Positions 3,481 to 31,661 of a stretch of DNA of 44,660 nucleotides are shown here, piece after piece. The position numbers and the translations under genes are program-made. The notes beneath the pieces are model-generated. The model saw only the letters and a program-made list of their open reading frames with translations, was not told the origin of the DNA and ran no database searches. Source of the DNA: a bacterium (GTDB taxonomy: Bacteria; UBP15; UBA6099; JAJRTR01); contig JAJRTR010000197.1 in assembly GCA_024278215.1 (NCBI GenBank), forward strand, positions 1 through 44,660, written 5' to 3'. Position 1 is the first letter of the stretch. Every line of letters starts with the position of its first letter.

Positions 3481-3669
3481 TGCCGCGATCCTTTCATAGA
3501 TAATTTTACAATTGGCTCTTATAAGTGTTTTACCTTGTGGCGGGTTTTCCAAACGTGATTTATGTCAATAACGGATTATATGCGATAATTTGCTGTTATA
3601 TGCGGCTCAAAATAATATATTTTTTGTTCAGGTTGTATAATGAACCGTGAAAGGTGTCGAGAGTCGAAA

Positions 3670-10200: not shown

Positions 10201-10388
10201 TTGTCCAAACCTCCAATTAAGTCTTTCTTCTAATTCTTCAGGTTGCCACATAAAAGATGTGTCCTGAATCAAGTTGTTTTTATATCAACCCGCATTGCCT
10301 TTCAGGGCGATTCGGCGCAAAAACATTATCACGAAAAAAAAGCTATATGCAAACGTGAAAGTGTGCCGCTCTCTGTCGTATTTTTAAA

Positions 10389-11591
10389 CTATTCGGCGGT
10401 CCATCGCACCGTCACACTGGTGCCTCTTCCACATTCGGTGTCGTACTCTATCTTCCCGCCGCTTTCCTCTATCACTCCCAGCGCGATGGAGAGACCGAGC
10501 CCTGTGCCTTTCCCAATCGGTTTGGTGGTGAAGAAGGGCTCGAAAATCTTGTCTCTCTCATCTTCCGGAATGCCTTCTCCGTTGTCAGTGATTACGAGTA
10601 CCTTATTGCCGGCGGCCAATTCTGTTTTAACCTCTATAGCCGGGTCTTCAACATGTTCCAGCGCATCACAGGAATTCTGTATAAAGTTCATAATTGTATG
10701 AACCAGGTTCTGCCCATTTGCGGAAATACTCCCGACATTATCTGAAAGCATTTTCTCGACGGATATGTTCCTCAATCGTGGAGAAAGAATACTCAAAGCG
10801 TTTTCTACACAATCGTTCAGTGAGGCTTCCTGAACATCCCCCTGGTCACGTCTCGCAAATGTTCTCAATGCCATGGAAATCTGTGAAACCCTTGTGACGC
10901 CGTTTCTTATTCCCTGAAGAATCCCATCGAGATTTTGTCTGATTTTTATAATTTCTTTTTTGTCGATCCCGCTGCTTTCCAGGATTTCATCGACTCTCTT
11001 CAGGTACTTTTCGAGAGTCTGGATATTTGTGGAAATGAATGCGAGCGGATTATTTATCTCATGGGCCATGCCGGCCGACATGGTGCCGAGCACTTTCAGT
11101 CTTTCCGAATGTACGAGTTCACGCTGTTGCTGTTTTATCGTGTCGAGAGCCTCCTCGAGCTCCGAAGTCCTGTTCGCAAGGTGTTTGAGGAGTTCGCGGT
11201 TTTCCACCTTCAGCAATCTTTTCTCAGCGGCGCTGTCGATAATGCCGGGTAGAATCGAGGGCGCGTCGATGGGTTTCTTAAGGAAATCAATTGCGCCGAG
11301 CCGCATCGCTTCAAGAATATTACCGGCATTTCTGTGTGCGGAAATCACAATAACCTGTGTGTCGGAGTCTCTCTTTCGTGCAGCCTTCAGGACATCCATT
11401 CCTGATGCGCCGGGCATTTTCAGGTCGGTAAGGATAACGTCATATCTGTTCTGCTGAATCTTTTCGACAGCTTCTTCGCCACTTCCTGAAATATCGGGTT
11501 CGTAGCCGTACTTTTCAAGTATCTTCCGGAGCGTATCGAGGAACAAATCCTCGTCGTCCACAACCAGCAGTTTTAAATTCTTACGGTCCAC
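10389..11591 (-). CDS. Cytoplasmic hybrid receiver-histidine kinase (REC-coiled coil-HisKA-HATPase)
   Basis: LLVVDDE, TDLKMP, AHEINNPL, DNGEGI, FEPFFTTK..GKGTGLGLSI. Confidence 0.92.
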   Translation of the reverse strand: MDRKNLKLLVVDDEDLFLDTLRKILEKYGYEPDISGSGEEAVEKIQQNRYDVILTDLKMPGASGMDVLKAARKRDSDTQVIVISAHRNAGNILEAMRLGAIDFLKKPIDAPSILPGIIDSAAEKRLLKVENRELLKHLANRTSELEEALDTIKQQQRELVHSERLKVLGTMSAGMAHEINNPLAFISTNIQTLEKYLKRVDEILESSGIDKKEIIKIRQNLDGILQGIRNGVTRVSQISMALRTFARRDQGDVQEASLNDCVENALSILSPRLRNISVEKMLSDNVGSISANGQNLVHTIMNFIQNSCDALEHVEDPAIEVKTELAAGNKVLVITDNGEGIPEDERDKIFEPFFTTKPIGKGTGLGLSIALGVIEESGGKIEYDTECGRGTSVTVRWTAE

Positions 11592-11600
11592 CGAAACTCC

Positions 11601-13156
<1,556 letters not shown>

Positions 13157-13555
13157 CTTCCCACTCTCCAAGTATGTCGATGACAATATTTCTGATAAGC
13201 TCCGGAGTGAACGGTTTTCTAATGAAGGCTGTCACACCCTTATTTATCAGCCTTTCTATTTTCGCGCGGCTGCCCTCTGTGGAGACGACGACAGTCGGCA
13301 GATTATCAAGGATATCCTCTTTTTTCATTGTTTCTATCATTTCAACGCCATCCATCACAGGCATGTTTATATCTACAAAGACCAGATCAATCCAGTTGTT
13401 GCGCAAAATATCGAGCGCCTCTCTGCCGTTGCCTGCTTCATGCACTATCCCGACAGGTATTCCCGCTGCCGCAAGAGTCTTTTTCAGCATCGTCCTGATG
13501 ATAGTCGAATCATCAGCAGTCAGAAAATTGAAAGCCATGTCTGCTCTCTCCTCAC

Positions 13556-14041
13556 CTAAAGTTCCATTTTCTCGCCCTTGATCTTCAGGTATGTCTTTCC
13601 CGTCCCTATTTCAAGCATCATAATAATCGGATAGCTGTTACCGATGTGTTCACCGGACATGATCACATTGTTTTTCCAGAATATCTTTCGCATATAGATG
13701 TAATTTCTTCTTCCGATCTCGAACATGTCGTTTCCTTGAGTCGTTTTTCCGCCGCCCGCAACTTTTACAACCATTCTGTTCTTTTTCGCGCCAAGTTTGT
13801 AAGCTTCTTTGAACATCATTGGAATCCCGGTGTCGGCATACATGAAAGGATTTCTCTTAGCTTTGTCCGGCTCGTTTTTCGAGCCCGGGAGTTGGAAATG
13901 CAGCAGTGCTCCCACATGAACCTCAGGATCATATATTGTTATTCCTATACAGGAGCCGAGCGCGTGTGTAATGATGATGTCGTTTGGATTCGATGATATC
14001 TTCATGTCGGAAACGCCAACGACTTTTCTGTTTCTGTTCAT
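13556..14041 (-). CDS. cheD: Chemoreceptor glutamine deamidase CheD
   Basis: THALGSCIGI..YD, H..LP, YADTGIP, KVAGG, IGRRN. Confidence 0.92.
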   Translation of the reverse strand: MNRNRKVVGVSDMKISSNPNDIIITHALGSCIGITIYDPEVHVGALLHFQLPGSKNEPDKAKRNPFMYADTGIPMMFKEAYKLGAKKNRMVVKVAGGGKTTQGNDMFEIGRRNYIYMRKIFWKNNVIMSGEHIGNSYPIIMMLEIGTGKTYLKIKGEKMEL

Positions 14042-14103
14042 TCTTTATGTCCGTTTCGCTATATTCGAAAAGTATTCCCCGGATTTCAATGAGAATGAGT
14101 TCA

Positions 14104-15012
14104 TTACGATTTCCGGTAGACTGCCGGTTTTATGTATTTAAAACCATGTTTTATACTCGAAAGGCTTTCAGAATGTCCGACAAAGAAGTAGCCTCCCGGC
14201 AGTATCGCATCATAGAATTTATTGACAAGTTCCTTCTGTGTGGCCCTGTCGAAATAGATCATTACATTGCGGCAGAAAACGACGTTGAACTTTCCCTGGA
14301 AAGGCCATTGCGCCATGAGGTTGAGCTGCCTGAACCGCACAAGGGCGGTAAGGTCCGGGTTGACTTTATACTGCTCTCCTTTCCTGTTCGGATATCGTGA
14401 AAAATATTTGAGGCGGAAACCTTTGGGAGTGGCCCTGAAAGCCGAAGCATTATATATTCCCTGCTCCGCCCGGTTGAGGATTCTCGTGGAAATATCAGTC
14501 GCGAGAATAAGAGCGTCCATTCGGTGCATATTGGGGATTTGTTCTCTCATCAGCATGGCGATCGTGTAGGGTTCCTCGCCGGAAGAACATCCCGCGCTCC
14601 ATATTCTCAACTTTCTGTCTTTATCAGGATCAATCGGCTTCAGCACATTTTTTGTCAGAAAGTCGAAGTGGTCTTCTTCCCTGAAAAAGAATGTGAGATT
14701 AGTCGTCAAGACATCTACCATGTTGATCAACTCTTCGCCGGTAGCGTCCTGCTCGACGTAATGGAGATATTCTTTGTAAGTGTCGAAACCGAGTTTTCGC
14801 AGGCGCTTGTTTAGTCGTGCCTGGACGAGTTCTTTTTTACCGTCATGAAGATTTATTCGGGAAAGTTCGTAGACTTTATCGCTGATAATCTTAAATTCAC
14901 GATCCGACAACGGGCGGCTTTTAAGGATGTTGCCGACCGGGGCGTTATTGTGCTTCTCGTATGTTTTGTTATACCTGTTTTGCAAAAATACTCTTCCTGA
15001 ACACAGCTTCAA
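14104..15012 (-). CDS. cheR: Chemotaxis methyltransferase CheR
   Basis: TTNLTFFFRE, IWSAGCSSGEEPYTIAM, ATDIS, FCRNVMIYFD, GHSESL. Confidence 0.96.
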   Translation of the reverse strand: MKLCSGRVFLQNRYNKTYEKHNNAPVGNILKSRPLSDREFKIISDKVYELSRINLHDGKKELVQARLNKRLRKLGFDTYKEYLHYVEQDATGEELINMVDVLTTNLTFFFREEDHFDFLTKNVLKPIDPDKDRKLRIWSAGCSSGEEPYTIAMLMREQIPNMHRMDALILATDISTRILNRAEQGIYNASAFRATPKGFRLKYFSRYPNRKGEQYKVNPDLTALVRFRQLNLMAQWPFQGKFNVVFCRNVMIYFDRATQKELVNKFYDAILPGGYFFVGHSESLSSIKHGFKYIKPAVYRKS

Positions 15013-17648
15013 ACCGGTGCGAATTCGGCATTATTGGCAAGTCGCACAAGACCTGTCGTATCAAGTATAAGGGAGACTTTCCCGTCGCCGAGAATCGCGC
15101 CTCCGGATATACCCTCGAGATTGTCGAAAGCCCGTCCCAGCGATTTTATCACCACCTGCTGCTGGCCAAGGAGCTTATCGACCAGCAACGCGCATTTCTT
15201 GCCGTCTCCCGTGATAATGACGAGAAGCGCCTCTTCCGGTTTGGACACGGCACCTTCTATTTCAAACAACCGGTAGAGCCTGAAAAGAGGGATCAGGCTG
15301 TCCCTGACATTCAGCATTTCCCCTTTGCCCACCACGGTCTTCACCTGCCCGTTTTCAGGCCTGATGCTTTTCATGATGGCGATTGTGGGGATGATGAATT
15401 TTTCTTTTCCGACCGAAATGAGCATTCCCTCGATGATGGCGAGTGTGAGCGGCAGCCTGATTATGAATTCGGTGCCCTTGCCTTTTTGGGTTTTTATTTC
15501 CACCCGGCCCCTGAGTCCGTCTATACACTTCTTTACAACGTCCATGCCGACGCCCCTGCCGGAAACATCGGTCACCTCTTCGGCGGTCGAAAAGCCGGGT
15601 TTGAAAATGAGATTGTATATATCTTCTCGGCTGAGTTCCTGTCCCGGTTCTATCAATTGTTTAGCTTCAGCCTTTGCGCGTATCTTGTCGACATCCAGCC
15701 CTTTGCCATCGTCCGCTATTGATATTACAACATTGCCGCCCTCGTGCTTTGCCGATATACGCACACTGCCTTTTTTCGGCTTATCCGACAGGCTCCTCTC
15801 AGCCGGGGATTCAATACCGTGGTCTACAGCGTTTCTGACCATGTGCACGAGAGGGCTGCTTATCTCTTCGACAACATTTCTGTCGAGTTCGGTGTCTTCG
15901 CCGGAATAGGAAAACTCGACGGGAACGCCCGATTTTACTGAAAGATCGCGGGCGATTCTGGCCAGCTTTTGAAAAGTGCTTTTCAAGGAAATCATTCTCA
16001 TGCTGGTAGCGAGTTCCTGGAGTTCCCGCGTTATCTTGCCAAGGTGCGCGACATTCTGTGCGAGCTTCTCATTTTTTGTATCTCTTATCTCAGGTTCCTG
16101 GACGACCATCGAGTTGGCGATAACAAGCTCCCCTACAGCGTCGATAAGTGTGTCGAGTCTGCTGGTGCTGACTTTTATCATGGAACTGATGCGCGTCGAT
16201 ATCATCGGCGTCTTTACAGACGATTCTTTTTTCTGAGCCCTGAGAGCCAGCGCGACATCCTTCGCTTTTACCGCGCCTTCCTCGACAAGCAACTCGCCGA
16301 GTGGCCGTTTTTCACCGCCATGTTGTTTCTCCAGCACTTTATCGATTACTTCGCGACCGATTACTCCTGAATTCGTCAGCACTTCTCCGATCTTCTTGCC
16401 GGGAAGCATGACAACTTCCCTTTCGCTGGATTCGGCAGGGTTATCAAGCCGCGAGAGCAGTTCGTCGATACCTTCGGGCCTCACATATTTGCCGCCCGAA
16501 ATGTTTCGGCTGATGACCTCCACAAGCTCCTTGAGCATGTCGAGCGCATCGAAGCATACGTCGGCATAATTTCCTTTCAGTATTATGCGGCCCTCACGGG
16601 CATCGTCGAGCAGCGACTCCGTGCGATGGGCGATATTGCCGACATCCTTAAGCTTAAGAAAACCGGCTATCCCCTTTACGTTGTGAAACGCTCTGAAAAG
16701 TTCCTGCAAGTCCTCCTGGCTTTCAGGGTTGGTTTCGAGGCTGAGCAGCGCAGTCTCCGCATTGCTCAAATATTCCAGTGTCTCTGTCACGAAGTCCATC
16801 AACTCGCCGCGTTCGGCATCGAGGTTTATGATAATAGGTCTGTAATGCGATACAGGTTTTACAGGCTGTCCGGTCTTCTGGGGATGCACGCCGAATTTCG
16901 TGCGGATACTGTCGATCAAAGAATCTTCTATTTCAGGAATGTTGTCCGGTTTCAGGCTGTCGCAGAAGTCCGCAAGAAAATCTTTAGCAGCAAGCAGTCC
17001 GTCTGCAATATTTCTTTTCGACGCATTCTTGTTCTGTTCGATAATGCTCTCCAGGTCGTGAAGGAAGCCCGAAAGCGCTTCAAGACCGATCGCTCCCGCT
17101 TCGCCTTTCGCGTTGTGAATGTATCTTTTCACCTCGTCCAGATCGGCGCTGCCGTCATCTTTTTCCAGCGAAAGAATCTGCGATTCGAATTCATCGAGCA
17201 TCAACCTCTGATTCTGGATAAACGCATCAATGAGATCGGGAGTCACAAGTTCGTTGAAAACGCCGGATGACGGTTTGGCTGGAGACATGTCGCCTGTCGA
17301 TTCATAAATCCCGGCTTCATCTTCAGGCTCGTCCGATGCGTCCTCGTCTCCGCCTCTCATTTCGCGCTCGATGTGAGCGATCATGCCCTGCAAATCCGTT
17401 ATGTGTTCTGTGAGCTTATCCGTCAGTGCCGGGATATCTGCATCGTCCTCGATCAATTCGGTGGAAGTCTCAAGCGTGTCTCCGGCGGCAATACGAAATT
17501 CTTCCGGCATTTCTTCATTGAGCGCAAGTTTCTCCACCTGGTATATAACTGCCTCGGCGACATCCTGGTCGTCCGGCTCGAGTTCCATCACAAGAGCAGC
17601 TACAACCTCCAGTACCATTCTTGCTTCTTCTATTATGTGTTCGTTCAT
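15009..17648 (-). CDS. cheA: Chemotaxis histidine kinase CheA with two HPt domains and an MshEN-like insert
   Basis: HPt motifs YIHNAKG and AFHNVKG; LD.LIDAVGELVI; HMVRNAVDHGIE; DDGKGL; GRGVGMDVV; and a C-terminal CheW-like domain (GGAILGDG.V.LILD). Confidence 0.96.
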   Translation of the reverse strand: MNEHIIEEARMVLEVVAALVMELEPDDQDVAEAVIYQVEKLALNEEMPEEFRIAAGDTLETSTELIEDDADIPALTDKLTEHITDLQGMIAHIEREMRGGDEDASDEPEDEAGIYESTGDMSPAKPSSGVFNELVTPDLIDAFIQNQRLMLDEFESQILSLEKDDGSADLDEVKRYIHNAKGEAGAIGLEALSGFLHDLESIIEQNKNASKRNIADGLLAAKDFLADFCDSLKPDNIPEIEDSLIDSIRTKFGVHPQKTGQPVKPVSHYRPIIINLDAERGELMDFVTETLEYLSNAETALLSLETNPESQEDLQELFRAFHNVKGIAGFLKLKDVGNIAHRTESLLDDAREGRIILKGNYADVCFDALDMLKELVEVISRNISGGKYVRPEGIDELLSRLDNPAESSEREVVMLPGKKIGEVLTNSGVIGREVIDKVLEKQHGGEKRPLGELLVEEGAVKAKDVALALRAQKKESSVKTPMISTRISSMIKVSTSRLDTLIDAVGELVIANSMVVQEPEIRDTKNEKLAQNVAHLGKITRELQELATSMRMISLKSTFQKLARIARDLSVKSGVPVEFSYSGEDTELDRNVVEEISSPLVHMVRNAVDHGIESPAERSLSDKPKKGSVRISAKHEGGNVVISIADDGKGLDVDKIRAKAEAKQLIEPGQELSREDIYNLIFKPGFSTAEEVTDVSGRGVGMDVVKKCIDGLRGRVEIKTQKGKGTEFIIRLPLTLAIIEGMLISVGKEKFIIPTIAIMKSIRPENGQVKTVVGKGEMLNVRDSLIPLFRLYRLFEIEGAVSKPEEALLVIITGDGKKCALLVDKLLGQQQVVIKSLGRAFDNLEGISGGAILGDGKVSLILDTTGLVRLANNAEFAPV

Positions 17649-18082
17649 GGAGTCCCCTTGAAATTTTCAAAACCCATTCCCTTTTTCCATCTTGCTACTC
17701 TTTCGATCGCGCATTTAACAGCATCGACAAGCAAGTCAAGATCATGGAAAGGTTTCGCGAAATAATCCGCCGCGCCTGCCGAAAAGCAATCCAGTAGATA
17801 CGACATGTTGGAATATGCTGTCATTACTATCACCACGCACATCGGATTCACATCCTTGATACGCCGAAGGAGTTCTACTCCATCCATCCCCGGCATCTTT
17901 ATATCGGTAATAATGATGTTGTAGTGATCGTTCAATAACTTCTGAACCACTTCACGCGGGTCACTGCATATATCGGCATTTATACCCTCCAGATCGAAGT
18001 GCCTCTTCAGGCTTTCAAGTAGTTGCACTTCGTCGTCAACAATCAGAATGCTTTCCTGACTGTAGTCAATTTTGTTTGCCAT
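17645..18082 (-). CDS. Single-domain response regulator heading the che operon
   Basis: ILIVDDE, TDIKMPGMDG, MTAY, KPF. It has an AAGGAG RBS and an ATGA overlap with cheA. Confidence 0.9.
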   Translation of the reverse strand: MANKIDYSQESILIVDDEVQLLESLKRHFDLEGINADICSDPREVVQKLLNDHYNIIITDIKMPGMDGVELLRRIKDVNPMCVVIVMTAYSNMSYLLDCFSAGAADYFAKPFHDLDLLVDAVKCAIERVARWKKGMGFENFKGTP

Positions 18083-22499: not shown

Positions 22500-24290
22500 T
22501 TATTTATCGTTACAGGCGGGAAAAGTCAGAACGAAGGAAGTGCCTTCACCTTTTGTTGATTTGACATCTATTTTTCCATTATTGTTTTTCACAATGCGGA
22601 AGGTTATGGACAGTCCCAGCCCGGTGCCGGCCCTTTTTGTCGTGAAGAACGGGTCGAATATCCGTGACAGGTCTTCTTCGCTTATTCCAGGCCCTGTGTC
22701 ACGGATACGCAACACAACATTATCATTTACCGCATCGCAGGATATGGACAAAGTACCTTTGCCCTTCATTGCCTGCGCGGCATTCAGGGAAATATTCATG
22801 ACGGCCTGAATTATTTCCTTTCTGCTTCCGACAATAAACGCTTTGCTTGAGAAATCCGCAATATTAACATCGACATACTTCATTATTTTGTGAAACATAA
22901 GGATTCGCAAGGCTTCTTTTACTGCTTCTGCTACATCGACAACTTTCTTTTCAACACCGCCGGGACGCGAGAAGTCCAGGAGTTCCCTGATTGTCGAATC
23001 GATGAACCCGACTTCTTTATCAAGTTCAATGATGTAGTGGTCGAATTTTTCGGGCGGAGCGTTCCGCAGCAGTTGGAGATATCCGGATATGGCGGCGAGA
23101 GGATTCCCTATTTCATGGGCGACCCCGGCGGCGAGTTCACCAATGGCGGCGAGTTTTCCCGACTCGATAAGCTGCTCCTGGTTGAGCCTTATTTCCTCGT
23201 CGCGCCTCTCCAGCGCTTTTCCCATCCTGTTGAAGCTTTTCGCCAGTCTGCTGAATTCATCTTTTCCCGTTTCCGGGATTCTGTGCGCAAAATCACCGGT
23301 TTCGATACGGCTGACGCCTTCGGCCAGATCATCGAGCGGCTCGACGATTCTTCTTGACATCGAAGCGCTCGCGAGAACTGAAAACGCGAAGGCCAGCACG
23401 GCGATCAGTGCGATGGCGAGGAGACCGCTCTCCTGGATTTCGGAGATTCTCGATTTCGGATAGATCGTGATCAGGTAGGCGACATGCCTCTGTCCGCTTG
23501 TGATGGGTGTGCGGCCCACAAGATAGTCTTTATCAAGATACTCGCCGGGCGAAAGCTGCGCTTCATTTGTAATCTCGAAAGTTGCTGAAATAATGGTGCC
23601 GCGATATTCGACAGCGGTTTCCGTTCCTGTCAGAGATCGTATTTTCTCGACAAAACGTTCGTCGAGATAGTTGCCGATACGCACATAGCCCGAAGGCGCA
23701 GTCCTGGCTGAGGCAGTGTCGCTGCAAGCCTCGTCGATGTCTCTGTATCCGCATGTGCTTTCGTCGGAAAAAACAGGAGCCACAGCTACCGCGGCGATCC
23801 TGCCGGGAAAAACAGGTTCGATACCGGCCGCCGCTGTTTTGGTGCTTTCGGCATTCTGGAATGACGGATACAAAAAAAGAGGCTCGGTTTCCGCGAGTTC
23901 CGCGTCAATATCTTCATAATCGAACCTTGTCGCGTGACGCAGCACAACACCGTCTTTGCCCGCGATAGAAATAAAATCCGCTCCGAGCGAGTCGATCTGT
24001 TTTTTCAATTCCGCCTGTGTAATCTCTCTGCCGTCCTTACCCAGAGAAGTTTTAATAAAATAATCATTCGACATCAGCCTTGAGAGTAACGCGGCATCCA
24101 GAATGTTTTGCCTGATGATGTTGCGCGCAAGCAGGGAAGCACGTTCCATTTCGTTGCGTGCTTCGGATTCCAGGTATCTTGATGTGAAAACAAAAAAAGC
24201 GACGCCTGTAAAAATGACAACGCCAAGCACAACGGCGGCATGGGCCGACATGAGTTTGCCGAAAAGGGACGTTGTTCTATTATTCAACAT
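22500..24290 (-). CDS. Membrane sensor histidine kinase (TM-Cache-like-TM-HAMP-HisKA-HATPase)
   Basis: Two TM helices, a HAMP domain (DEFSRLAKSFNRM), AHEIGNPL, DTGPGI and GTGLGLSI. Confidence 0.92.
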   Translation of the reverse strand: MLNNRTTSLFGKLMSAHAAVVLGVVIFTGVAFFVFTSRYLESEARNEMERASLLARNIIRQNILDAALLSRLMSNDYFIKTSLGKDGREITQAELKKQIDSLGADFISIAGKDGVVLRHATRFDYEDIDAELAETEPLFLYPSFQNAESTKTAAAGIEPVFPGRIAAVAVAPVFSDESTCGYRDIDEACSDTASARTAPSGYVRIGNYLDERFVEKIRSLTGTETAVEYRGTIISATFEITNEAQLSPGEYLDKDYLVGRTPITSGQRHVAYLITIYPKSRISEIQESGLLAIALIAVLAFAFSVLASASMSRRIVEPLDDLAEGVSRIETGDFAHRIPETGKDEFSRLAKSFNRMGKALERRDEEIRLNQEQLIESGKLAAIGELAAGVAHEIGNPLAAISGYLQLLRNAPPEKFDHYIIELDKEVGFIDSTIRELLDFSRPGGVEKKVVDVAEAVKEALRILMFHKIMKYVDVNIADFSSKAFIVGSRKEIIQAVMNISLNAAQAMKGKGTLSISCDAVNDNVVLRIRDTGPGISEEDLSRIFDPFFTTKRAGTGLGLSITFRIVKNNNGKIDVKSTKGEGTSFVLTFPACNDK

Positions 24291-24888
24291 AATCGTGATA
24301 TAACCGGGCGAAGATGCCTGTTTCATTTAAATAAATCAGTATTTCAACGACTGCGGCCGACAATTCAGGGCCGCCCTGTTCAGAAACGCAAAGTGTTTTC
24401 CAGCCCTCCACGCCGGTGAAAAAATATTTTATCCTTCTGCCGCCCTCGCAGTCCTGTGTCTCTCCTGTAAGGAACATAACGTCGAATTTGTCGTGCCAGT
24501 CGCTATTCTTAGATTTGTTTACTTCGCCTGCCATTACGATATTTGTTTTAACTTCAAGAACGGAAGAAATCTCATTGGCGAGCGAGGGATTGAAACCGGC
24601 GGGCAACCCGAACCGGGGATCAGGATATTGGAAAGGCTTTTCCGTTGCGGGCAACGCTACCCTCAATACTCCGCGCGCGCGCACCTCTTTCAGCCTTCCG
24701 GCATCAGGTATCTGCGAAAGAACTCTGCGTGATATCCGGCCCATCACTTCCTTCTGGATTGTTTCCGGCGCATCGGATTGCGCTCCGGATGAGGATTTAT
24801 TGCCGGATATGTCGGCGCAACTCGCAATTATTGCAGAGATGCACACCGCGCACAACATAATCAATATATGTTTTCCATATCTATTCAT
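24280..24888 (-). CDS. Lipoprotein with a family-3 solute-binding-protein-like domain
   Basis: Lipobox IIASC; LKEVRARGVLRVA...PFQY...GFNPSLANEI...L.VK. Its ATG overlaps the TPR gene stop. Confidence 0.7.
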   Translation of the reverse strand: MNRYGKHILIMLCAVCISAIIASCADISGNKSSSGAQSDAPETIQKEVMGRISRRVLSQIPDAGRLKEVRARGVLRVALPATEKPFQYPDPRFGLPAGFNPSLANEISSVLEVKTNIVMAGEVNKSKNSDWHDKFDVMFLTGETQDCEGGRRIKYFFTGVEGWKTLCVSEQGGPELSAAVVEILIYLNETGIFARLYHDYVE

Positions 24889-26069
24889 TCCGATTTTAAT
24901 ATCCACAGAAATTTGGGGTTGTCCGAAAGCCAGCCGAAATCGGAGTCGTTCTTTAACCGTACAATCATCGGGCGGCCTCCCCACTCGACAGCCTTTCCCG
25001 CATACTCGACAGCTTCCGTGCCTTTCTTCATTCTGGAATATATCGCGGCTATTTCGTACCATGTTTCAGCAAGTGAAGGATCGATATCCACTGCTGTAAG
25101 GAAGATGTCCACTGCTTTCGAGTACTCAAAAGTTTTGCTGTAAAGCAATCCGAGTTGATGGTAGTATTCAGGGTTGCCGCTGTCGATATCGATTGCCTTC
25201 TTCAGTTGATGTTCGGCAGCCCCGTACTTCCGCGAAAGGAAATCCGTGAAGCCTGACCAGAAATATGCTCTTGGGTCGGACGGTGCAGTCTCGGCAACTG
25301 ATTTAAACTTTGCCTCAGCTTTACTAAGTTCTGTCTTTTCCAGGTAGATTCTGCCGATCAGGATGCTGGGTTCAATGTAATTCTCATCAGAACTCTCGGA
25401 TTCCCGTGCCAGGATGAGCGCCTTTTGCGTTTCGTTATTCTCATAAGCATAAAGTGCTTTCCAGTACTTCACATAAGCCTCATTATTGTCGGTACCGACG
25501 ATTGAAACATCATCCGGTTCCGGTAATTTCACATCAATTGCAGCGCTGATATTTCGTGCCAGTAATGTTTGCGCTTCAGCAATTGAGAATTTCTTTATAT
25601 TGAAGGAAATGTCATCAATAATTCCCGTATCCGGATTTATAAGTGTGCCGATGAAAGAAAAACCGGTTCTTGTCTGTTCGAGTCGACCTTCTATCAGAGC
25701 CGAAGCGCCCAGAAACTGCCTTAAAGCATCTTTAGTTTCAAATGATAGAGAAACCTTTTTTCCACGGTTCCATCTGTTGGCCAATCGCCGTAGCTGCTCG
25801 CGCGGCATTGCCCTGTATGAGCCAGTTCTGTTGATGAGCTTTATCGAGTAGTCTGTAAGAGCTAGCGCCGCCCACGGCTGATCTAAACCTGCTTCCGACA
25901 CATAATCGAAAACGACTATATCCACTCTCGCCCGCGCGGTTGCTGTCGACGCGAGAAAAACAGACAGCACAAAATATAGAAGTGATGTCACTTTACATAC
26001 GTGTACAATATTTGTGACGACATCTTTATGGATATTGCACTTTTTCATCAACGAAACCTTTGTTGACAT
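24885..26069 (-). CDS. Secreted tetratricopeptide-repeat protein with a TolB-N/CsgG-like N-terminal domain
   Basis: A signal-like hydrophobic segment and several TPRs (AYFWSG...AIDIDSGNPEYYHQLGLLY...AVDIDPSLAETWYEIA.IY). Confidence 0.78.
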   Translation of the reverse strand: MSTKVSLMKKCNIHKDVVTNIVHVCKVTSLLYFVLSVFLASTATARARVDIVVFDYVSEAGLDQPWAALALTDYSIKLINRTGSYRAMPREQLRRLANRWNRGKKVSLSFETKDALRQFLGASALIEGRLEQTRTGFSFIGTLINPDTGIIDDISFNIKKFSIAEAQTLLARNISAAIDVKLPEPDDVSIVGTDNNEAYVKYWKALYAYENNETQKALILARESESSDENYIEPSILIGRIYLEKTELSKAEAKFKSVAETAPSDPRAYFWSGFTDFLSRKYGAAEHQLKKAIDIDSGNPEYYHQLGLLYSKTFEYSKAVDIFLTAVDIDPSLAETWYEIAAIYSRMKKGTEAVEYAGKAVEWGGRPMIVRLKNDSDFGWLSDNPKFLWILKSE

Positions 26070-26283: not shown

Positions 26284-27267
26284 TCATTTACAGATATTGA
26301 TTATCTCATTCACCGGGGTTTCCTTTCCGGCTTGAATCCTGAGTTCGAAACAACTTGCGGAGGATGCGATGTTATCACAACGCAGCAAATACCTTTCGTA
26401 GTCAGCCTCGATCAGGGGCGTTCTGTGCAGGTTCAATAACTTCAGAACAGCTTTCTTTTTACTTAATGAAATAATACCATGTCGCGCTTGCATAATCGAA
26501 GGAAAAAATACAAAATCAACACAGGCGGCGACGCAGTCCGGCGGCGGCGACATGAAAAGCCCTTCGTGAAAGTAAGTAAAACCCTTAGCGAGCAGCCTGC
26601 CGCCGCATTTCTCCGAAAGGTCGGCAGCGTTAAGTAATTCCGAATTTCTTAATAGCATAGGTGTGTGTTTGTCGAAGCCGACGGCGGCGGAATCGTCCGA
26701 CATATACTCTGCATCGTTCTCGAGCATTGCCCTCATCAGAGTCGATTTCCCGCTCATGTTTTCACCGCAAAACATAATACCTTTGCCGTCGTATATCACG
26801 CTGGAAGCGTGAATGAACAATATGTTTTTTGATTTCATTACATGCCCGATAAAAGAAGTAATTGCAGAGAAAAACACTTCCGCCGGGTTGTCCGGAGGCA
26901 CGCCCGGTAGTTCGATCGTACACCTGTGTGTCTCCATATCGCACATCATAACAATATCACCCGTCGCCCCGCGAAGGGGTATGCAGATATTATCATCGCC
27001 GGGCAACGGCAACTCTTCATCGTCGGTTTCCAGAAATTCGAGAGAAAAAACACTTTCATTACTATTATCGTCCGCAGGCAGTATTCTATTGCCGTAATGC
27101 AGCTTAAGACAATGCTCGAGGAAATTGCCGCGGACGGAGCAGAAACGAAGAACAACGCCGAACAGATGGAGGTCGAAACTATTCCTGTCGCCGATGCGTG
27201 AATAAATGTCGTGGGTTGCAGTCTCTATCGTTCTGGTCCTATCGTGCAGTCTTGAGCCTGGCGGCAA
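26284..27267 (-). CDS. HPr kinase/phosphorylase-like P-loop kinase (RiPP/lasso-associated type)
   Basis: IHASSV..DGKGIMFCGENMSGKSTL (His plus Walker A) and YMSDD. The start is uncertain. Confidence 0.78.
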   Translation of the reverse strand: MPPGSRLHDRTRTIETATHDIYSRIGDRNSFDLHLFGVVLRFCSVRGNFLEHCLKLHYGNRILPADDNSNESVFSLEFLETDDEELPLPGDDNICIPLRGATGDIVMMCDMETHRCTIELPGVPPDNPAEVFFSAITSFIGHVMKSKNILFIHASSVIYDGKGIMFCGENMSGKSTLMRAMLENDAEYMSDDSAAVGFDKHTPMLLRNSELLNAADLSEKCGGRLLAKGFTYFHEGLFMSPPPDCVAACVDFVFFPSIMQARHGIISLSKKKAVLKLLNLHRTPLIEADYERYLLRCDNIASSASCFELRIQAGKETPVNEIINICK

Positions 27268-28753
27268 TCGAATTGAATCCCTTATACAGCGGCTTCATAA
27301 TACGGTGCTCGAGGGCGGGCGACACGAAAAAAAGAATCCTCGAACAAAGTGACGCAACGGCCCAGGCCAACTTGCGAAGTCCCATCTTCCAGCCGTCACC
27401 CTGTATCGCATGGCGCGTAGAAAGTGGAAACCTGCAAAGGTAATTTCTTGTTTTCGCCGAATAGTTGAAAAAATTTCTCTCAAGAAAAGGGTTCCTTGAT
27501 TGCAACCACCGGAAAAGCGGTCGGCCCGGCTTCTCGACAGCTTCCAGGTAGTCCTCCAGCCACCATTCTGTAAATCCGTATTCACGGTGATAGTCATTGT
27601 ACAGTTGTGTGCCGGGAAACGGTATCGGCACAAAAACTATAAAGGATGCTTTTTCCCGAAATTTATCCATGAAGTCGAGATTGTTTTGAAAATGCCTCGG
27701 GCCTTCCCAGGGCAGGCCGGTTATGAAATACCCGCTAACATTTATTCCCGCGTCAGAACACAGCCGTATCGCTTGCTCGTTCTGCTCGGAGCATATTCTT
27801 TTCCGCAACATTTTCAGAGTATCGTCGTTGGCGCTTTCCATGCCGATAAAGATATCCGTGCAGCCCGCGGATTTCATCAAGGCAAGTGTTTCTTCATCGA
27901 GATGATCGGTCCTGGCCATGCACTTCCAGTGAAACGGCCTCTTCCCGGCGAGCTTCGTCATTCTATCGCAGAGGCTGCGGACGAGTTCAATATTCTCAAG
28001 GAAAGATGAATCGATGAAATGCAGGTTTGCTATCGAGTGGTTGGTGACAGCATCTTCGATCTCGCTGAAAACACTTTCTTCCGATCTGTATCTCACGCCC
28101 CGGTTGAGATGTCTTTCAACGCAGAAAGTACATTTGCGGAAACAGCCCCTGCTGAGCAGTAAAATCAGCAGGCGATCGTCGGCATCGCCTGTCTCTGAAT
28201 AGAAACGATTCGACGGAGGTGGAAGATCGTCGATATCTTCAACATAAGACGCGCGCCCGATGTATCTCGAACCATCTTCGGAACGCCAGGCGATACCGCT
28301 CATTCCGGCAGGCGATTTCCCTTCACGCCAGCGCAGGATAAGTTCCTTGAATGTTTCCTCTCCGTCCCCGATCACGGCAGCGTCGAAACCGGCGTCGAGA
28401 ACCTCGCCGGGCAGCAGGGTGGCGTGCAATCCGCCGGCGACAAGCTTTGCTTCCGGCAGTGCGGAGCGTACCAGTTTAAGAAAATCATAGGCGTAGAGAA
28501 TATTCAGACTTGTATTCAGGGAAAAGCCAACAACATCCGGGCTTAGCTGCTTGATTCTACTGATCAAACGGCGTGCACCCGAGTCGAAATCAAGGCATGG
28601 TTCGTCCAGCAATTCCGTGCCGATGCCGGCTGCTCTGAGACTGGATATAACATAACCGGCACCAAGAGAATAGCTCAGACCTTTACCTGGATAAGGGGGG
28701 ATAATGATCAGGGTTTCTTGTTTGTCGGATTCCACTTTTTCGATAGCGGGCAT
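27239..28753 (-). CDS. Cobalamin-binding radical SAM enzyme (class B methyltransferase-like)
   Basis: An N-terminal B12-binding domain (DVVGFS, VAGGLHAT, GDGEETF), SRGCFRKCTFC, GMES, GYFITGLP.E and P.PGTQLY. Confidence 0.92.
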   Translation of the reverse strand: MPAIEKVESDKQETLIIIPPYPGKGLSYSLGAGYVISSLRAAGIGTELLDEPCLDFDSGARRLISRIKQLSPDVVGFSLNTSLNILYAYDFLKLVRSALPEAKLVAGGLHATLLPGEVLDAGFDAAVIGDGEETFKELILRWREGKSPAGMSGIAWRSEDGSRYIGRASYVEDIDDLPPPSNRFYSETGDADDRLLILLLSRGCFRKCTFCVERHLNRGVRYRSEESVFSEIEDAVTNHSIANLHFIDSSFLENIELVRSLCDRMTKLAGKRPFHWKCMARTDHLDEETLALMKSAGCTDIFIGMESANDDTLKMLRKRICSEQNEQAIRLCSDAGINVSGYFITGLPWEGPRHFQNNLDFMDKFREKASFIVFVPIPFPGTQLYNDYHREYGFTEWWLEDYLEAVEKPGRPLFRWLQSRNPFLERNFFNYSAKTRNYLCRFPLSTRHAIQGDGWKMGLRKLAWAVASLCSRILFFVSPALEHRIMKPLYKGFNSIAARLKTAR

Positions 28754-28792
28754 GTAATGATGATCCCGGGTCCATTTTTAAAACAAATACAA

Positions 28793-28813
28793 CAACACAA
28801 AACACTTGTGTTG
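28793..28813 (-). terminator. Stem-loop downstream of the precursor gene (terminator or RNA stabiliser)
   Basis: The minus strand has CAACACAA-GTGTT-TTGTGTTG (8-bp stem) followed by the T-rich TTGTATTTGTTTT. Confidence 0.45.
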
Positions 28814-28847
28814 CGGCAGCTGTTTGTAACAGGAAAGCGAAGCAGGC

Positions 28848-29009
28848 CTACTTATCGGCGTCCTTTGCCATAGCAGCCTTGCACGACGGCCCACTGTATA
28901 CGTCTTTAACAGTCCCGTATTTTGTCAGGGTCGGTTTGACAAACAATTTTTTGCCATTTTCAAAATGATCGGCACTACCTGTCTGCGAGCAGTTCTTTTT
29001 CTTTTCCAT
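28848..29009 (-). CDS. Putative RiPP precursor peptide, 53 aa
   Basis: MEKKKNCSQTGSADHFENGKKLFVKPTLTKYGTVKDVYSGPSCKAAMAKDADK. It has a strong AAGGAGGTG RBS before ATG 29009 and an RRE-binding motif (Y/F)xxPxLxxxG. Confidence 0.75.
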   Translation of the reverse strand: MEKKKNCSQTGSADHFENGKKLFVKPTLTKYGTVKDVYSGPSCKAAMAKDADK

Positions 29010-30051
29010 TCCGCACCTCCTTTTCCATGAAAGTGTTGACGATTCTGCAAACTTCGCGCGGCGCGGAGAAAATATTTCCGTGTTCATACAGACCCAGTCC
29101 CGGGCACGGCCTGCATTTCGGAAAATGGTTGCAGCCTGCGCATTCAAATTGTTTGACTTTCATATTACGTATTTCTTTCAGCGCGTTCGAGTTGCGCCAC
29201 AAATCACCGAAAGAGGATTCTCTTATATTTCCGGCCGGAATATCGACCAGCGAGCAGGGCAGCAAGTCTCCATGGCTTGTGATGTAACCGGTGGTTCGCC
29301 CCATTGTGCACCATGACTCGATCGTATTGTCAGGCAGATAATCTTCGGGATCGACTTTACCGAAATCTGCCGCGAAAGTTTCCCACGGCCGGGGCAATTC
29401 CCTGAAAACCGATTCTGGCAACCTGTATTTCAGTGGCGAATTGTCTCCATTTTCCCTTGGCAGAATTATCGAATAGAACTGGTGCCTGACCCCTAACTTC
29501 CCGCAGAGTGCTTCAATGGCGTCACACTCTGAATGATTTACCGTCATCAGGAGTGTGGAAGCTTCGGGATGCAAGCGGGCTTCCGCCAGTCTTTCAAGCG
29601 CACTTATTGTTTTTGCAAAGCTTCCCGGTGTCCGGGTGACTTTTTCGTGAATCCGCTTTTCAGCGCTGTAGAGACTAACGGCGACTGCCTTGATCTTTTC
29701 CGGTCGCTGCGAAAGCATGTCGATGATTCGGTCTGTCAGCAAAACTCCGTTTGTCTGGAGCGTTAGCGGAAAGTCCGAATCGAGCAATATCTCAAGGATC
29801 TCATATATTCTCGGATGAGTCAGGAACTCGCCACCGGTGAGATTCAGGTGAAAAACCCCTGCCTCTTTCATCTCCGGCAATATTTTCTTATAGTCTTCCG
29901 GTTGCAACTCGTTTTCGATATTTGTATTGCATTTGAGCACACAATGGACACAATTGAGATTGCAGCGTCTTGTGACTTCGATCTGGATGCGCACAGGACT
30001 GCTTTTTCGTGACAGGTATTTGAATAACTCTTCGCGTTTTTTTCTTATCAT
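28975..30051 (-). CDS. Radical SAM enzyme with a SPASM domain (peptide maturase, PqqE-like)
   Basis: RRCNLNCVHC, TGGEFL, QTNG; SPASM cysteines WCTMG...GDLLPC...CAGCNHFPKCRPCPG...C. Confidence 0.93.
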   Translation of the reverse strand: MIRKKREELFKYLSRKSSPVRIQIEVTRRCNLNCVHCVLKCNTNIENELQPEDYKKILPEMKEAGVFHLNLTGGEFLTHPRIYEILEILLDSDFPLTLQTNGVLLTDRIIDMLSQRPEKIKAVAVSLYSAEKRIHEKVTRTPGSFAKTISALERLAEARLHPEASTLLMTVNHSECDAIEALCGKLGVRHQFYSIILPRENGDNSPLKYRLPESVFRELPRPWETFAADFGKVDPEDYLPDNTIESWCTMGRTTGYITSHGDLLPCSLVDIPAGNIRESSFGDLWRNSNALKEIRNMKVKQFECAGCNHFPKCRPCPGLGLYEHGNIFSAPREVCRIVNTFMEKEVRNGKEKELLADR

Positions 30052-30341
30052 AAAGCGCGATCAACTTCAGTAATCAGATTTTCTGCACACAGATCGTCAA
30101 GCAATTCTTGCACCTGGCTCTCAACATCATGCGCACAACAGTCATAATCATTTTGAAGAACTTCGATTATATCCTCGATTACGCATATATCGCCAAGTAA
30201 TCGCCATATCTCGGTTCCTGTTTCATTCAGACTGTAGTATACCCCTGATTTAAGATTCAAAAGCACAGCCTCGCCGTTGATTATCCGTTCGACACAATCT
30301 TTGCTCCTGGTCCATCGTTTCTTTTTCGCATTAATCATCAT
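30048..30341 (-). CDS. PqqD-family peptide chaperone (RiPP recognition element)
   Basis: GEAVLLNLKSGVYYSLNETGTEIWRLL...I...L...YD....VE..V..LL.DL...LI. It has an ATGA overlap with the rSAM gene. Confidence 0.92.
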   Translation of the reverse strand: MMINAKKKRWTRSKDCVERIINGEAVLLNLKSGVYYSLNETGTEIWRLLGDICVIEDIIEVLQNDYDCCAHDVESQVQELLDDLCAENLITEVDRAL

Positions 30342-30385
30342 ATTATTGTGTAGCCGCCGGATATTTCAGTAAATACATTTCGCAC

Positions 30386-30435
30386 GAGCCAATTGCAAAA
30401 TGATATTCTGCTGTATCCGGCTGCAAGTGGTTCTC
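30386..30435. repeat. Truncated MITE terminus upstream of pqqD
   Basis: GAGCCAATTGCAAAATGATATTCTGCTG...GGCTGCAAGT. Confidence 0.65.
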
Positions 30436-30608
30436 CTTATATAATATTTTAAAATGTGGAAGTAAAAAAGTAAAGCTGTAAACGGGATGATAATAGTAAG
30501 TGTACTGTGCATCAGGTGATAATCGAGACATTTGAAGCCAGTTATTGCAGCACCTTAAATCAAGCCCAGACAGGTTGTAACGCAAGAGCAAGAAAAAAGA
30601 GTTTTTAA

Positions 30609-30637
30609 TTGCAAGGATTTTTGACATGCTGTATAAT
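30609..30637 (+). promoter_or_regulatory. Sigma70-type promoter for the SLBB-divIC-S1 genes
   Basis: TTGCAA-N17-TATAAT. Confidence 0.55.
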
Positions 30638-30713
30638 TTAAAATTAGTCGAAATACCCGACAGATAAAAAATACTTCGATTTTCATCTTTAACAGAAAAT
30701 GGAGGCACAAATA

Positions 30714-31661
30714 ATGAATAAGGCGTTTTTAAAAATCTTTTCAGCAACGCTGGTGTTTTTGTCTGCATTTGTGATGATTCACACTGACAATTCATTGTGC
30801 GTTGATAAAAGTAATTTCAAACTTGATACCGGCGATGAAATAATGGTACGAATTCCAGTCGAGCCCAAATTCAGCGGTAAATACGTAATTGACGAACAGG
30901 GACAGTTTTTCCTTCCGCTGATAGAGGGAATTGAATTGGGAGCATTTGTGGCAAAGGGCAAAACCATAAGTGAAATCGAAAAAATACTAAGTGACCGGCT
31001 TAGCGAGTACTTCATACAAACCGAAGCAACCGTATCACTGGTAAGCATGGGGATCAGACCCGGCAGATCGGTATCTGTGATAGGAGAAGTTTTCAGACCC
31101 GATAACTTTAACTTTTATGACGGATTCACCCTTGTTGACGCTATTATAAAATCTGCAAATGTCAAACCTAATGCCGACATAAGCAATATTGTGGTGCAAA
31201 GGAGAGGTTCTCCCCCGATCAATATAGACGCGAGAAATATTCTTAATGGAACAGACATGACAAACAACATTTTACTGAAGGCCGGCGACTATGTAATTGT
31301 GCCTGGTATGACATCGCACATGCAAATAAAAATAGTTGTTCTTGGAATGGTTAGTGATCCCGGAAGCTACACACTGCCGGAAGGTTCGCAGGTAATCGAC
31401 GCGATATCAGCCGCCCAGGGAACCATCGGAAGAGCGGGTATCGGAAAGTCGTACATCATCAGGTCCGTAAATGGAAGGCCAACGGTTATACACACAGATT
31501 TAAAAGCGTTGATACAGAGAGCCGATTTGAAGGAAAATGTGGAATTAATGGATGGCGATATCGTATTTGTGCCCGAATCATCAGGTTACGACATAATGAA
31601 CAAAGTGTCCGATATACTCAACCTTAATCTACTGAAAAACATCATAAAAGACGATTTTTGA
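30714..31661 (+). CDS. Polysaccharide export protein (Poly_export plus SLBB, Wza-like)
   Basis: L.TGDEI.V, IDEQGQ..LPLI....G...AKGKT, and two SLBB repeats (VSVIGEV.RP; VLGMV..PG.Y...L.DGDIVFVPES). It has a GGAGG RBS. Confidence 0.85.
   Translation: MNKAFLKIFSATLVFLSAFVMIHTDNSLCVDKSNFKLDTGDEIMVRIPVEPKFSGKYVIDEQGQFFLPLIEGIELGAFVAKGKTISEIEKILSDRLSEYFIQTEATVSLVSMGIRPGRSVSVIGEVFRPDNFNFYDGFTLVDAIIKSANVKPNADISNIVVQRRGSPPINIDARNILNGTDMTNNILLKAGDYVIVPGMTSHMQIKIVVLGMVSDPGSYTLPEGSQVIDAISAAQGTIGRAGIGKSYIIRSVNGRPTVIHTDLKALIQRADLKENVELMDGDIVFVPESSGYDIMNKVSDILNLNLLKNIIKDDF

Follow-up and report, generated by a model that had tools for sequence, protein, structure and literature searches.

A candidate RiPP operon combining a PqqD-family recognition element, a radical SAM/SPASM enzyme and an HprK/ScmC-like P-loop enzyme in an uncultured candidate phylum

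HprK-like kinases act on the precursors of phosphorylated lasso peptides of the paeninodin type, and radical SAM (S-adenosylmethionine) enzymes with a SPASM domain form thioethers in the sactipeptide, ranthipeptide and QhpD/QhpC systems. To our knowledge, cassettes that unite a PqqD-family protein, a SPASM enzyme and an HprK-like kinase are widespread and have been catalogued for more than 10 years, but no product of theirs is known, and in many cases no substrate either. One of them, the SynChlorMet cassette, was defined by comparative genomics alone, with the NCBIfam families ScmC (TIGR04249), ScmD (TIGR04248), ScmE (TIGR04250) and ScmF (TIGR04251) and the Pfam family PF27840. We know of no published function for it; its name was not met in the papers found when the literature was searched for it, and no characterised pathway with both a radical SAM enzyme and an HprK-like protein was found in the literature searched. 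Here, we describe a locus of this kind from a bacterium of the candidate phylum UBP15, located on contig JAJRTR010000197.1 of assembly GCA_024278215.1, whose 44,660 nucleotides (nt) are referred to as the window. Five minus-strand genes fill positions 26284-30341, and we consider it probable that they belong to an operon for an uncharacterised peptide that is made ribosomally and then modified post-translationally (RiPP), of the 'RRE + radical SAM/SPASM + HprK/ScmC-like kinase' kind, where RRE stands for RiPP recognition element, which works by the mechanism proposed below.

A part of this enzyme set has been characterised in the family of linear polyphosphorylated peptides (LPP), represented by the cluster lppA-K-B-S-D-N of Paenibacillus alginolyticus (Popov et al., Nat Commun 2026, PMC13381572). 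Heterologous expression in that study showed that an HprK-like kinase, acting with a YxxP leader and a lasso-like RRE of the discrete type, yields a linear peptide that is poly-phosphorylated at core Ser3, without a cyclase. The same paper reports that an SpI-like peptidase removes the leader, that the clusters sit in capsular polysaccharide loci, that discrete lasso and LPP RREs bind the motif [Y/W]xxPx[L/V/I/F/A], and that LPPs, which occur within Bacillota, and paeninodins both have a patchy distribution (PMC13381572). RRE-Finder counts approximately 300 lasso-type discrete RREs that are found together with radical SAM enzymes (PMC7470986).

The locus in the window starts with the gene of a discrete PqqD-family RRE of 97 amino acids (aa) (30048..30341, minus strand). 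Its stop codon shares the ATGA at 30048-30051 with the start of a radical SAM enzyme of 358 aa that carries a full SPASM domain (28975..30051, minus strand). The precursor peptide gene (28848..29009, minus strand), which consists of 53 codons (MEKKKNCSQTGSADHFENGKKLFVKPTLTKYGTVKDVYSGPSCKAAMAKDADK) and a stop codon, begins with an ATG at 29009 that lies 35 nt within the 3' end of the SPASM gene and is preceded by AAGGAGGTG. Downstream of it follow a B12-binding radical SAM enzyme of 504 aa (27239..28753, minus strand) and an HprK/ScmC-like P-loop enzyme of 327 aa, a putative peptide serine kinase (26284..27267, minus strand), with the TTG start of the latter at 27267, 29 nt within the 3' end of the B12 gene. 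The overlaps were read directly from the sequence, and the five coupled minus-strand genes listed in the initial annotation are all present at these places.

The analysis establishes the genes with their domains, how far they are conserved and syntenic, and that the short open reading frame (ORF) of the peptide is coding. A tblastn search with the window proteins recovered the peptide in nine of ten stretches from related genomes, the tenth contig ending before it. A profile of ten peptides matches 11 of the 13 species genomes of the phylum, each in a single copy, and in all 11 the precursor stands directly after the SPASM gene; likewise, a SPASM homologue lies immediately 5' of the precursor in 12 of 14 metagenome loci. 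No match was obtained in G005, where the contig stops just past the kinase gene, or in G001 (94% complete, same family), which is also without orthologues of the SPASM gene and of three neighbouring genes described below, encoding a TPR protein, a histidine kinase and a Wza-like protein. An alignment of 12 sequences over 24 codons has 7, 9 and 24 variable sites at the first, second and third codon positions, and the pairwise codon differences comprise 676 synonymous versus 330 non-synonymous ones. The small ORF is a genuine gene and more than a chance reading frame. The initial annotation had named homologous loci without a conserved small ORF as grounds against its reading; the homologous loci do retain the ORF. 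When the profile was run against 1.84 billion representative proteins, only 15 matched at E ≤ 0.001, six of them clear family members and the rest similar in the leader only, and the precursor family is therefore rare and so far confined to one lineage.

The peptides share the consensus KK-x-Y-x-K-P-x-L-T-K-Y-G-T-V-K-D-V-Y-x-G-P-S-C, which is followed by approximately ten variable residues, usually ending in A-D-K. Invariant in the 14 aligned precursors are P26, L28, Y31, G32, K35, D36, V37, S42 and C43, and Ser42 and Cys43 are unchanged across all 18 distinct precursors collected. An Asp downstream of the Cys occurs in 17 of these 18, at position Cys+9 in 15 of them, while the intervening residues vary; fixed Cys and Asp anchors around a variable loop are the pattern expected of a macrocycle. 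All 14 aligned precursors carry the leader motif [Y/F]xxPxL, which starts with Phe23 in the window peptide.

In comparison with the LPP family, the window locus has in common a discrete lasso-like RRE, a YxxP-type leader, an HprK-like kinase, the lack of a macrolactam cyclase and a polysaccharide neighbourhood. The pairing of HprK-like kinase and discrete RRE that marks LPP loci is found here in a PqqD protein above its Pfam cut-off and an enzyme of PEPCK/HprK fold that resembles LppK in type. The placement of the serine is similar as well, since the phosphorylated Ser3 of LppA is residue 19 from the motif Tyr and Ser42 is residue 20 from Phe23. However, this locus has in addition a translationally coupled SPASM enzyme, sometimes together with a B12-binding radical SAM enzyme, and the domains of LppS (SpI-like peptidase), LppD (MsbA-like exporter) and LppN (NTP transferase) were not found among the window ORFs scanned. 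The full LPP leader, YxxPxVLxHQxIxFETxxS, differs from the sequence found here, YxKPxLTKYGTVKDVYxGPSC, with YxxPx[L] and a Ser near the expected distance as the common part. Moreover, this locus is inherited vertically in an uncultured candidate phylum, whereas LPPs are patchy in Bacillota (PMC13381572).

Paeninodin-type pathways resemble the locus in their HprK-like kinase, lasso-type discrete RRE and lasso-type leader motif. In contrast to them, the locus contains neither a cyclase nor a B2 peptidase, the peptide has no conserved ring-forming acidic residue, and the conserved Ser lies near the start of the core instead of at the C-terminus. With regards to the SynChlorMet cassette, the common elements are a PqqD-family chaperone, a PqqE-like SPASM enzyme and a ScmC-type HprK-like protein, the kinase-like protein here being assigned to PF27840. 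However, one SPASM enzyme is present here instead of two, and the scores miss the cut-offs of ScmD (26.5 versus 100), ScmE (87.7 versus 400) and ScmF (93.6 versus 400). The same holds for the GeoRSP families geo_PqqD_fam (28.2 versus 100), GeoRSP_rSAM (99.1 versus 400) and HprK_rel_B (24.4 versus 200). No protein of the locus reaches any NCBIfam equivalog cut-off, and because all curated family cut-offs are missed, we treat the locus as a separate family.

Weak P-loop matches led to further cassettes in four genomes. The unrelated genome G034 holds a genuine SynChlorMet cassette on its contig C9 (L064:5634-17647), with ScmD at 103.7 bits (cut-off 100) and ScmF at 408 (cut-off 400). This cassette is composed of two HprK-like genes, ScmD, two ScmF-like genes, one ScmE-like gene, an S26-type peptidase and an MsbA-like exporter; such a peptidase and ABC exporter are both missing from the window locus. 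In G022, genes for a SPASM enzyme and a nucleotidyltransferase adjoin an HprK_rel_B-like gene, and G036 has a set of HprK-like, PqqD and S26-peptidase genes. Within the phylum itself, G005 has a second, paralogous cassette on contig C357 (L068:1984-4100, plus strand) in which a kinase-like ORF of 294 aa is joined by genes for PqqD and for an MftC-like SPASM enzyme, and in which no clear precursor was found. A second PqqD-family gene of the window's own genome (G000:C115; L071:5295-8033, minus strand) belongs to a different PqqD-dependent system, and its next two ORFs look by eye like an ATP-grasp enzyme and a pyridoxal-phosphate decarboxylase. The A2 profile together with a regular expression for the leader found no precursor like that of the window near the G034 cassette, and nothing significant beside the other HprK-like/PqqD/SPASM cassettes (L064-L068) or in L049, L071 and L077 (best E 0.074). 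The initial annotation had not recognised the enzyme combination from a characterised RiPP class; PqqD, radical SAM/SPASM and HprK/ScmC-like proteins are in fact already catalogued together as SynChlorMet and GeoRSP, also in unrelated genomes, and the half formed by RRE, HprK-like kinase and YxxP leader corresponds to the LPP family, whose characterisation was published in 2026 (PMC13381572). The locus is a lineage-restricted variant within a catalogued, functionally unsolved kind, and not a categorically new combination of enzymes.

The PqqD protein scores 59.2 bits against Pfam PqqD (cut-off 23.4), and its best NCBIfam match is lasso_PqqD_Bac with 60.7 bits, under the cut-off of 80. In every complete related locus its gene adjoins the SPASM gene. 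A complex of the PqqD protein with the precursor, predicted with both partners given as alignments, received weak support, with a score of 0.52 versus 0.01 for the best control, contact agreement between runs of at least 80% and a predicted local distance difference test (pLDDT) value of the partner of at least 52. Of 157 solved complexes, 116 passed the mark applied here, as did 2 of 215 mismatched pairs, and scores of 0.60 or lower at this mark were obtained for only 18 of those 157 complexes and for both passing mismatches. Since RRE-leader complexes have already been solved, the pass may mirror nothing but likeness to these.

The SPASM enzyme scores above the Pfam cut-offs for Radical_SAM (82.8 bits) and SPASM (39.4 bits). 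The cluster-binding motif CX3CX2C (C30, C34, C37) is invariant in 10 of 10 homologues, as are the seven SPASM cysteines C248, C266, C304, C307, C313, C316 and C335. Known thioether-forming systems are similar in their RRE-dependent SPASM enzyme, the two auxiliary-cluster Cys sets and the Cys-bearing core, and a Cys followed by an Asp at a fixed distance is as found in Cys-to-Asp/Glu thioethers. The nearest solved sequence is likewise a thioether synthase, SkfB (E 1.9e-16). The system here differs in that there is one Cys per peptide, that AlbA, StsB and PapB scores lie far under their cut-offs, and that its thioether is putative. Because the nearest structure is SkfB but the best NCBIfam matches are AhbD, NirJ2 and MftC, with the enzyme far under every equivalog cut-off, its chemistry is not readable from similarity.

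The P-loop protein had no match in the local Pfam copy, but has a precomputed assignment to PF27840 (ScmC). NCBIfam TIGR04249 gave no match at E ≤ 0.01, and weak matches were obtained for HprK_rel_B (24.4 bits) and HprK_rel_A (22.7 bits), both with cut-offs of 200. When modelled with AlphaFold2 on the basis of ten homologues (pLDDT 83), the protein aligns with phosphoenolpyruvate (PEP) carboxykinases over 272 residues (Z 16.4, root mean square deviation 5.0) and shows the PEPCK/HprK fold; Foldseek matched the model to HPr kinase 1knx, and the family profile matches HprK structures weakly (1ko7, E 5e-4, 85 residues). Invariant residues are H153, G173-K174-S175 and D191-D192, an order of His, P-loop and Asp-Asp that we take to be that of the HprK catalytic motifs. 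That the protein is an ATP-using, HprK-like enzyme is well supported; its substrate would be the precursor peptide, which it may phosphorylate. A word-indexed homologue search with this protein returned two proteins, one of them the query, a result that says nothing on its distribution.

In Pfam scans, the B12 enzyme has the N-terminal B12-binding domain (68.9 bits) and the radical SAM core (70.3 bits) that mark class B (B12-dependent) radical SAM methyltransferases. Its best NCBIfam matches, ApyD (127 bits) and BchE (124 bits), are far under their cut-offs, and no curated subfamily is reached. The gene is found in 3 of the 11 precursor-bearing genomes, namely this one, G008 and G011, where it is cut by the contig end, and no peptide residue separates loci with it from those without. 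Judged by this distribution, the B12 gene is an accessory outside the conserved core, so that of the five genes first grouped together, PqqD, SPASM, precursor and HprK-like genes are kept across the loci and the B12 gene is not.

From these components, we infer every chemical step of the pathway, the order of the steps, leader removal, export and the biological role. The PqqD protein would bind the precursor leader at [Y/F]xxPxL and the following YG and present the peptide to the enzymes. The SPASM enzyme would then make one cross-link in the invariant core K-D-V-Y-x-G-P-S-C; our first guess is that a thioether links the single invariant Cys43 with a carbon of either the conserved downstream Asp (Cys+9) or Asp36. 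The HprK-like enzyme would use ATP to phosphorylate Ser42, whose placement parallels the Ser3 phospho-site of LppA, and where the B12 enzyme is present it could add a methyl group as optional tailoring. Since the genes are co-inherited with a module of TPR protein, binding protein and histidine kinase and with a polysaccharide exporter, the product probably serves as a signal or has a part in the physiology of the envelope or of exopolysaccharide. The locus is of interest because its substrate gene can be named unambiguously. This gene is short and highly conserved and encodes one Cys and one invariant Ser, which makes the locus a clean test case for the roles of the radical SAM enzyme and the kinase. 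Its near-universal vertical inheritance in the phylum and its fixed linkage to a sensor module are unusual, and through the linkage to the sensor kinase module and the polysaccharide exporter the biological role becomes open to testing.

Several observations weigh against this reading. In one precursor, the variant L061, the Cys is not followed by an Asp, and Tyr38 is replaced by Val in the representative P0005. In NCBIfam, the SPASM enzyme comes closest to enzymes of haem and mycofactocin synthesis (AhbD, NirJ2, MftC) and not to thioether synthases. The kinase assignment rests on sequence scores under every curated cut-off and on a fold that is common with PEP carboxykinase, and for that reason the P-loop enzyme may perform ATP-dependent chemistry other than Ser phosphorylation. 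The conserved block contains no leader peptidase or peptide exporter, and an archaeal-type SpI peptidase was sought in the whole genome (95% complete) with a best score of 22.9 bits versus a cut-off of 51.85. Finally, the near-universal, single-copy and syntenic inheritance in the phylum is unlike that of the patchy LPPs and paeninodins and better fits a housekeeping cofactor or a signal than an antibiotic. The RiPP reading of the initial annotation stands with regard to the RRE, the SPASM enzyme, the lasso-like leader, the HprK-like enzyme and the lack of a cyclase, and gives way where it counted the B12 enzyme as a core member and the combination as new. The L061 variant lies on a 1056-bp metagenome contig (L061:73-174, plus strand) and ends in ...PSCYAIALLNC, with a second Cys. 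It is followed by the start of a Crp-like ORF and a convergent FabD-like gene with no kinase-like gene, while the upstream side is cut by the contig end.

The conserved block extends beyond the five genes. Directly after the kinase-like gene follows a TPR protein with a hydrophobic N-terminal segment (24885..26069, minus strand; Pfam TPR families; NCBIfam PrsT weak at 48.8 bits, cut-off 312), then a small putative lipoprotein with a weak SBP_bac_3 match (24280..24888, minus strand; E 0.0046) and, as the final gene of the block, a sensor histidine kinase with HAMP, HisKA and HATPase_c domains (22500..24326, minus strand). These three genes (22500-26069) are present in every locus that is long enough; the histidine kinase is 44-51% identical and in the same position in the nine loci that reach it whole, and 40% identical in L020. 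Divergent from the block lies the gene of a Wza-like polysaccharide export protein (30699..31661, plus strand; Pfam Poly_export and SLBB; NCBIfam pepcterm_export 121 bits versus a cut-off of 180), followed by DivIC-like and S1-domain genes. This divergent arrangement was seen wherever the upstream flank is present, in 8 of 11 loci in one comparison and in 9 of 14 in the other. Synteny stops outside the eleven genes made up of the conserved block and the Wza-like, DivIC-like and S1-domain genes; the block proteins are 30-50% identical across families of the phylum, and the flanks differ. Hence, the unit had been drawn too small at 26284-30341, as synteny runs on to 22500 and to the divergent Wza-like gene. 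An exosortase/PEP-CTERM link, prompted by the weak PrsT and pepcterm_export matches, was rejected, as no Exosortase_EpsH was found in the 95% complete genome.

The window was also scanned for the missing functions. No ABC (ATP-binding cassette) or MFS (major facilitator superfamily) exporter was found among 34 window ORFs, a scan that covered ORFs of at least 120 aa outside the cluster, and Asn_synthase and Transglut_core3 gave no match on the window's contig (C175). This agrees with the earlier statement that the window holds no cyclase, B2 protease or exporter. Elsewhere in the genome, Asn_synthase matches lie on C138, C141, C151 and C107, and Transglut_core3 on C171.

Among the alternatives, an agr-like autocrine signal survives best, although we regard it as unlikely. 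According to it, precursor, maturation enzymes and receptor would be co-encoded, and the SBP-like lipoprotein, the TPR protein and the HAMP kinase would serve as sensors of the exported peptide and control the divergent genes for polysaccharide export. It concerns the role of the peptide and is compatible with the chemistry proposed above. The series PqqD-SPASM-precursor-(B12)-kinase-TPR-SBP-histidine kinase with the divergent Wza-like gene stays intact across families at the identities given while the flanks differ, the TPR stop and the lipoprotein ATG at 24888 overlap as ATGA, and the SBP-like and histidine-kinase genes overlap by 47 nt. The histidine kinase, TPR, SPASM and Wza-like orthologues are all missing together from G001, and the orphan precursor copy in a phage-like contig described below points in the same direction. 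However, the block has no exporter, leader peptidase or response regulator. The kinase-like and TPR genes, which overlap in G008, are separated by 214 nt in this window, and because of this gap two transcription units are perhaps present. Synteny across a phylum with 13 species genomes can also persist without functional coupling, and the absence from G001 could be an assembly gap.

Less probable still is that the peptide is the precursor of an intracellular cofactor or metabolite, comparable to pyrroloquinoline quinone (PQQ) or mycofactocin, in which the SPASM enzyme would cross-link or oxidise D-V-Y or S-C and the product would stay inside the cell. Such a role would suit a single-copy gene that occupies the same locus throughout the 11 of 13 phylum genomes, a block without exporter or dedicated peptidase (window scans and SpI search of the genome), and an RRE of the PqqD family; the NCBIfam matches of the SPASM enzyme also include the mycofactocin maturase (114.7 bits), among the best, and PqqE. 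On the other hand, homologues of the later PQQ and mycofactocin enzymes are not found in the block by Pfam and NCBIfam scans, and the HprK-like kinase and lasso-type leader suggest LPP or phosphorylated-lasso relatives. Since G001 is without the whole block, the block is also not essential.

A lasso pathway with its cyclase and B2 peptidase encoded elsewhere in the genome can be set aside as very improbable: the leader motif and the RRE are of lasso type, and an orphan 135-aa Transglut_core3 protein (C171) and three Asn_synthase homologues of approximately 630 aa (C138, C141, C151) are available, but no Asn_synthase gene lies near an RRE or precursor, the Transglut_core3 gene occurs in the precursor-less G001 as well, the enzyme translationally coupled to RRE and precursor is a SPASM enzyme and not a cyclase, and a lasso ring is unlikely because there is no conserved acidic residue at core positions 7-9 when the core is counted from Gly40, with none in the window peptide and the L012, L011 and L013 types. 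The Transglut_core3 protein shares its fold with the lasso B2 peptidase, and its gene (G000:C171; L049:7829-8236, plus strand) follows dnaA-dnaN-dciA and converges with a radical SAM gene. This orphan could be a trans-acting leader peptidase, but it occurs in 10 of 13 phylum genomes including G001, and its co-occurrence therefore speaks neither for nor against such a role.

Returning to the cross-linked and phosphorylated RiPP that we favour, a further extension appears improbable, namely that the peptide is a phylum-wide, vertically inherited signal or envelope factor and not an antibiotic, that the genes for its production, its sensing (SBP-like protein, TPR protein, histidine kinase) and polysaccharide export form one unit, and that a phage-like element has captured the bare precursor. 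If this were true, such an element could feed into or jam the peptide system with the maturation enzymes of the host. The orphan copy in question encodes a 35-aa precursor on a 3972-bp metagenome contig (L050:2285-2392, plus strand), where it stands among small unidirectional ORFs with a clear terminator 3' of the peptide gene and no PqqD, SPASM or kinase gene. Neighbouring ORFs match phrog_2650 (E 8e-24), phrog_32498 and DUF7448, and DNA similarity to the 13 phylum genomes is confined to the peptide gene, with up to 90% over 63 nt. The contig looks like a phage-like element with a captured precursor gene. A search of viral contigs with the precursor profile gave seven pattern matches with no relative among them.

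With regards to transcription signals, the 94-nt gap between the precursor stop and the B12 gene contains a terminator-like hairpin with a T-rich tail (28792..28814, minus strand), found by a consensus scan as a 10-pair stem and by folding. The 70 nt 3' of the precursor stop, which include the hairpin, fold with -17.0 kcal/mol (z = -2.2). This hairpin is not conserved, as a similarly low z after the precursor was obtained only for L026 and L050 among the 11 other loci folded. Upstream of the locus, positions 30342-30698 form an AT-rich divergent intergenic region of 357 nt between the PqqD and Wza-like genes, and the 1-kb bin holding it has a GC content of 0.38 compared to approximately 0.49 in the two preceding bins. 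The best promoter-like match in this region agrees at 10 of 12 positions and lies on the plus strand at 30609-30637, and a 150-aa ORF listed at 30343-30795 has no family match. At a greater distance (8416-18082 and 2011-3552, both minus strand), the window carries a complete chemotaxis set of CheA, a CheW domain, CheR, CheD, CheX, CheB and CheY-like proteins, along with two proteins that have a FapA domain, in one case as a fusion with a receiver domain.

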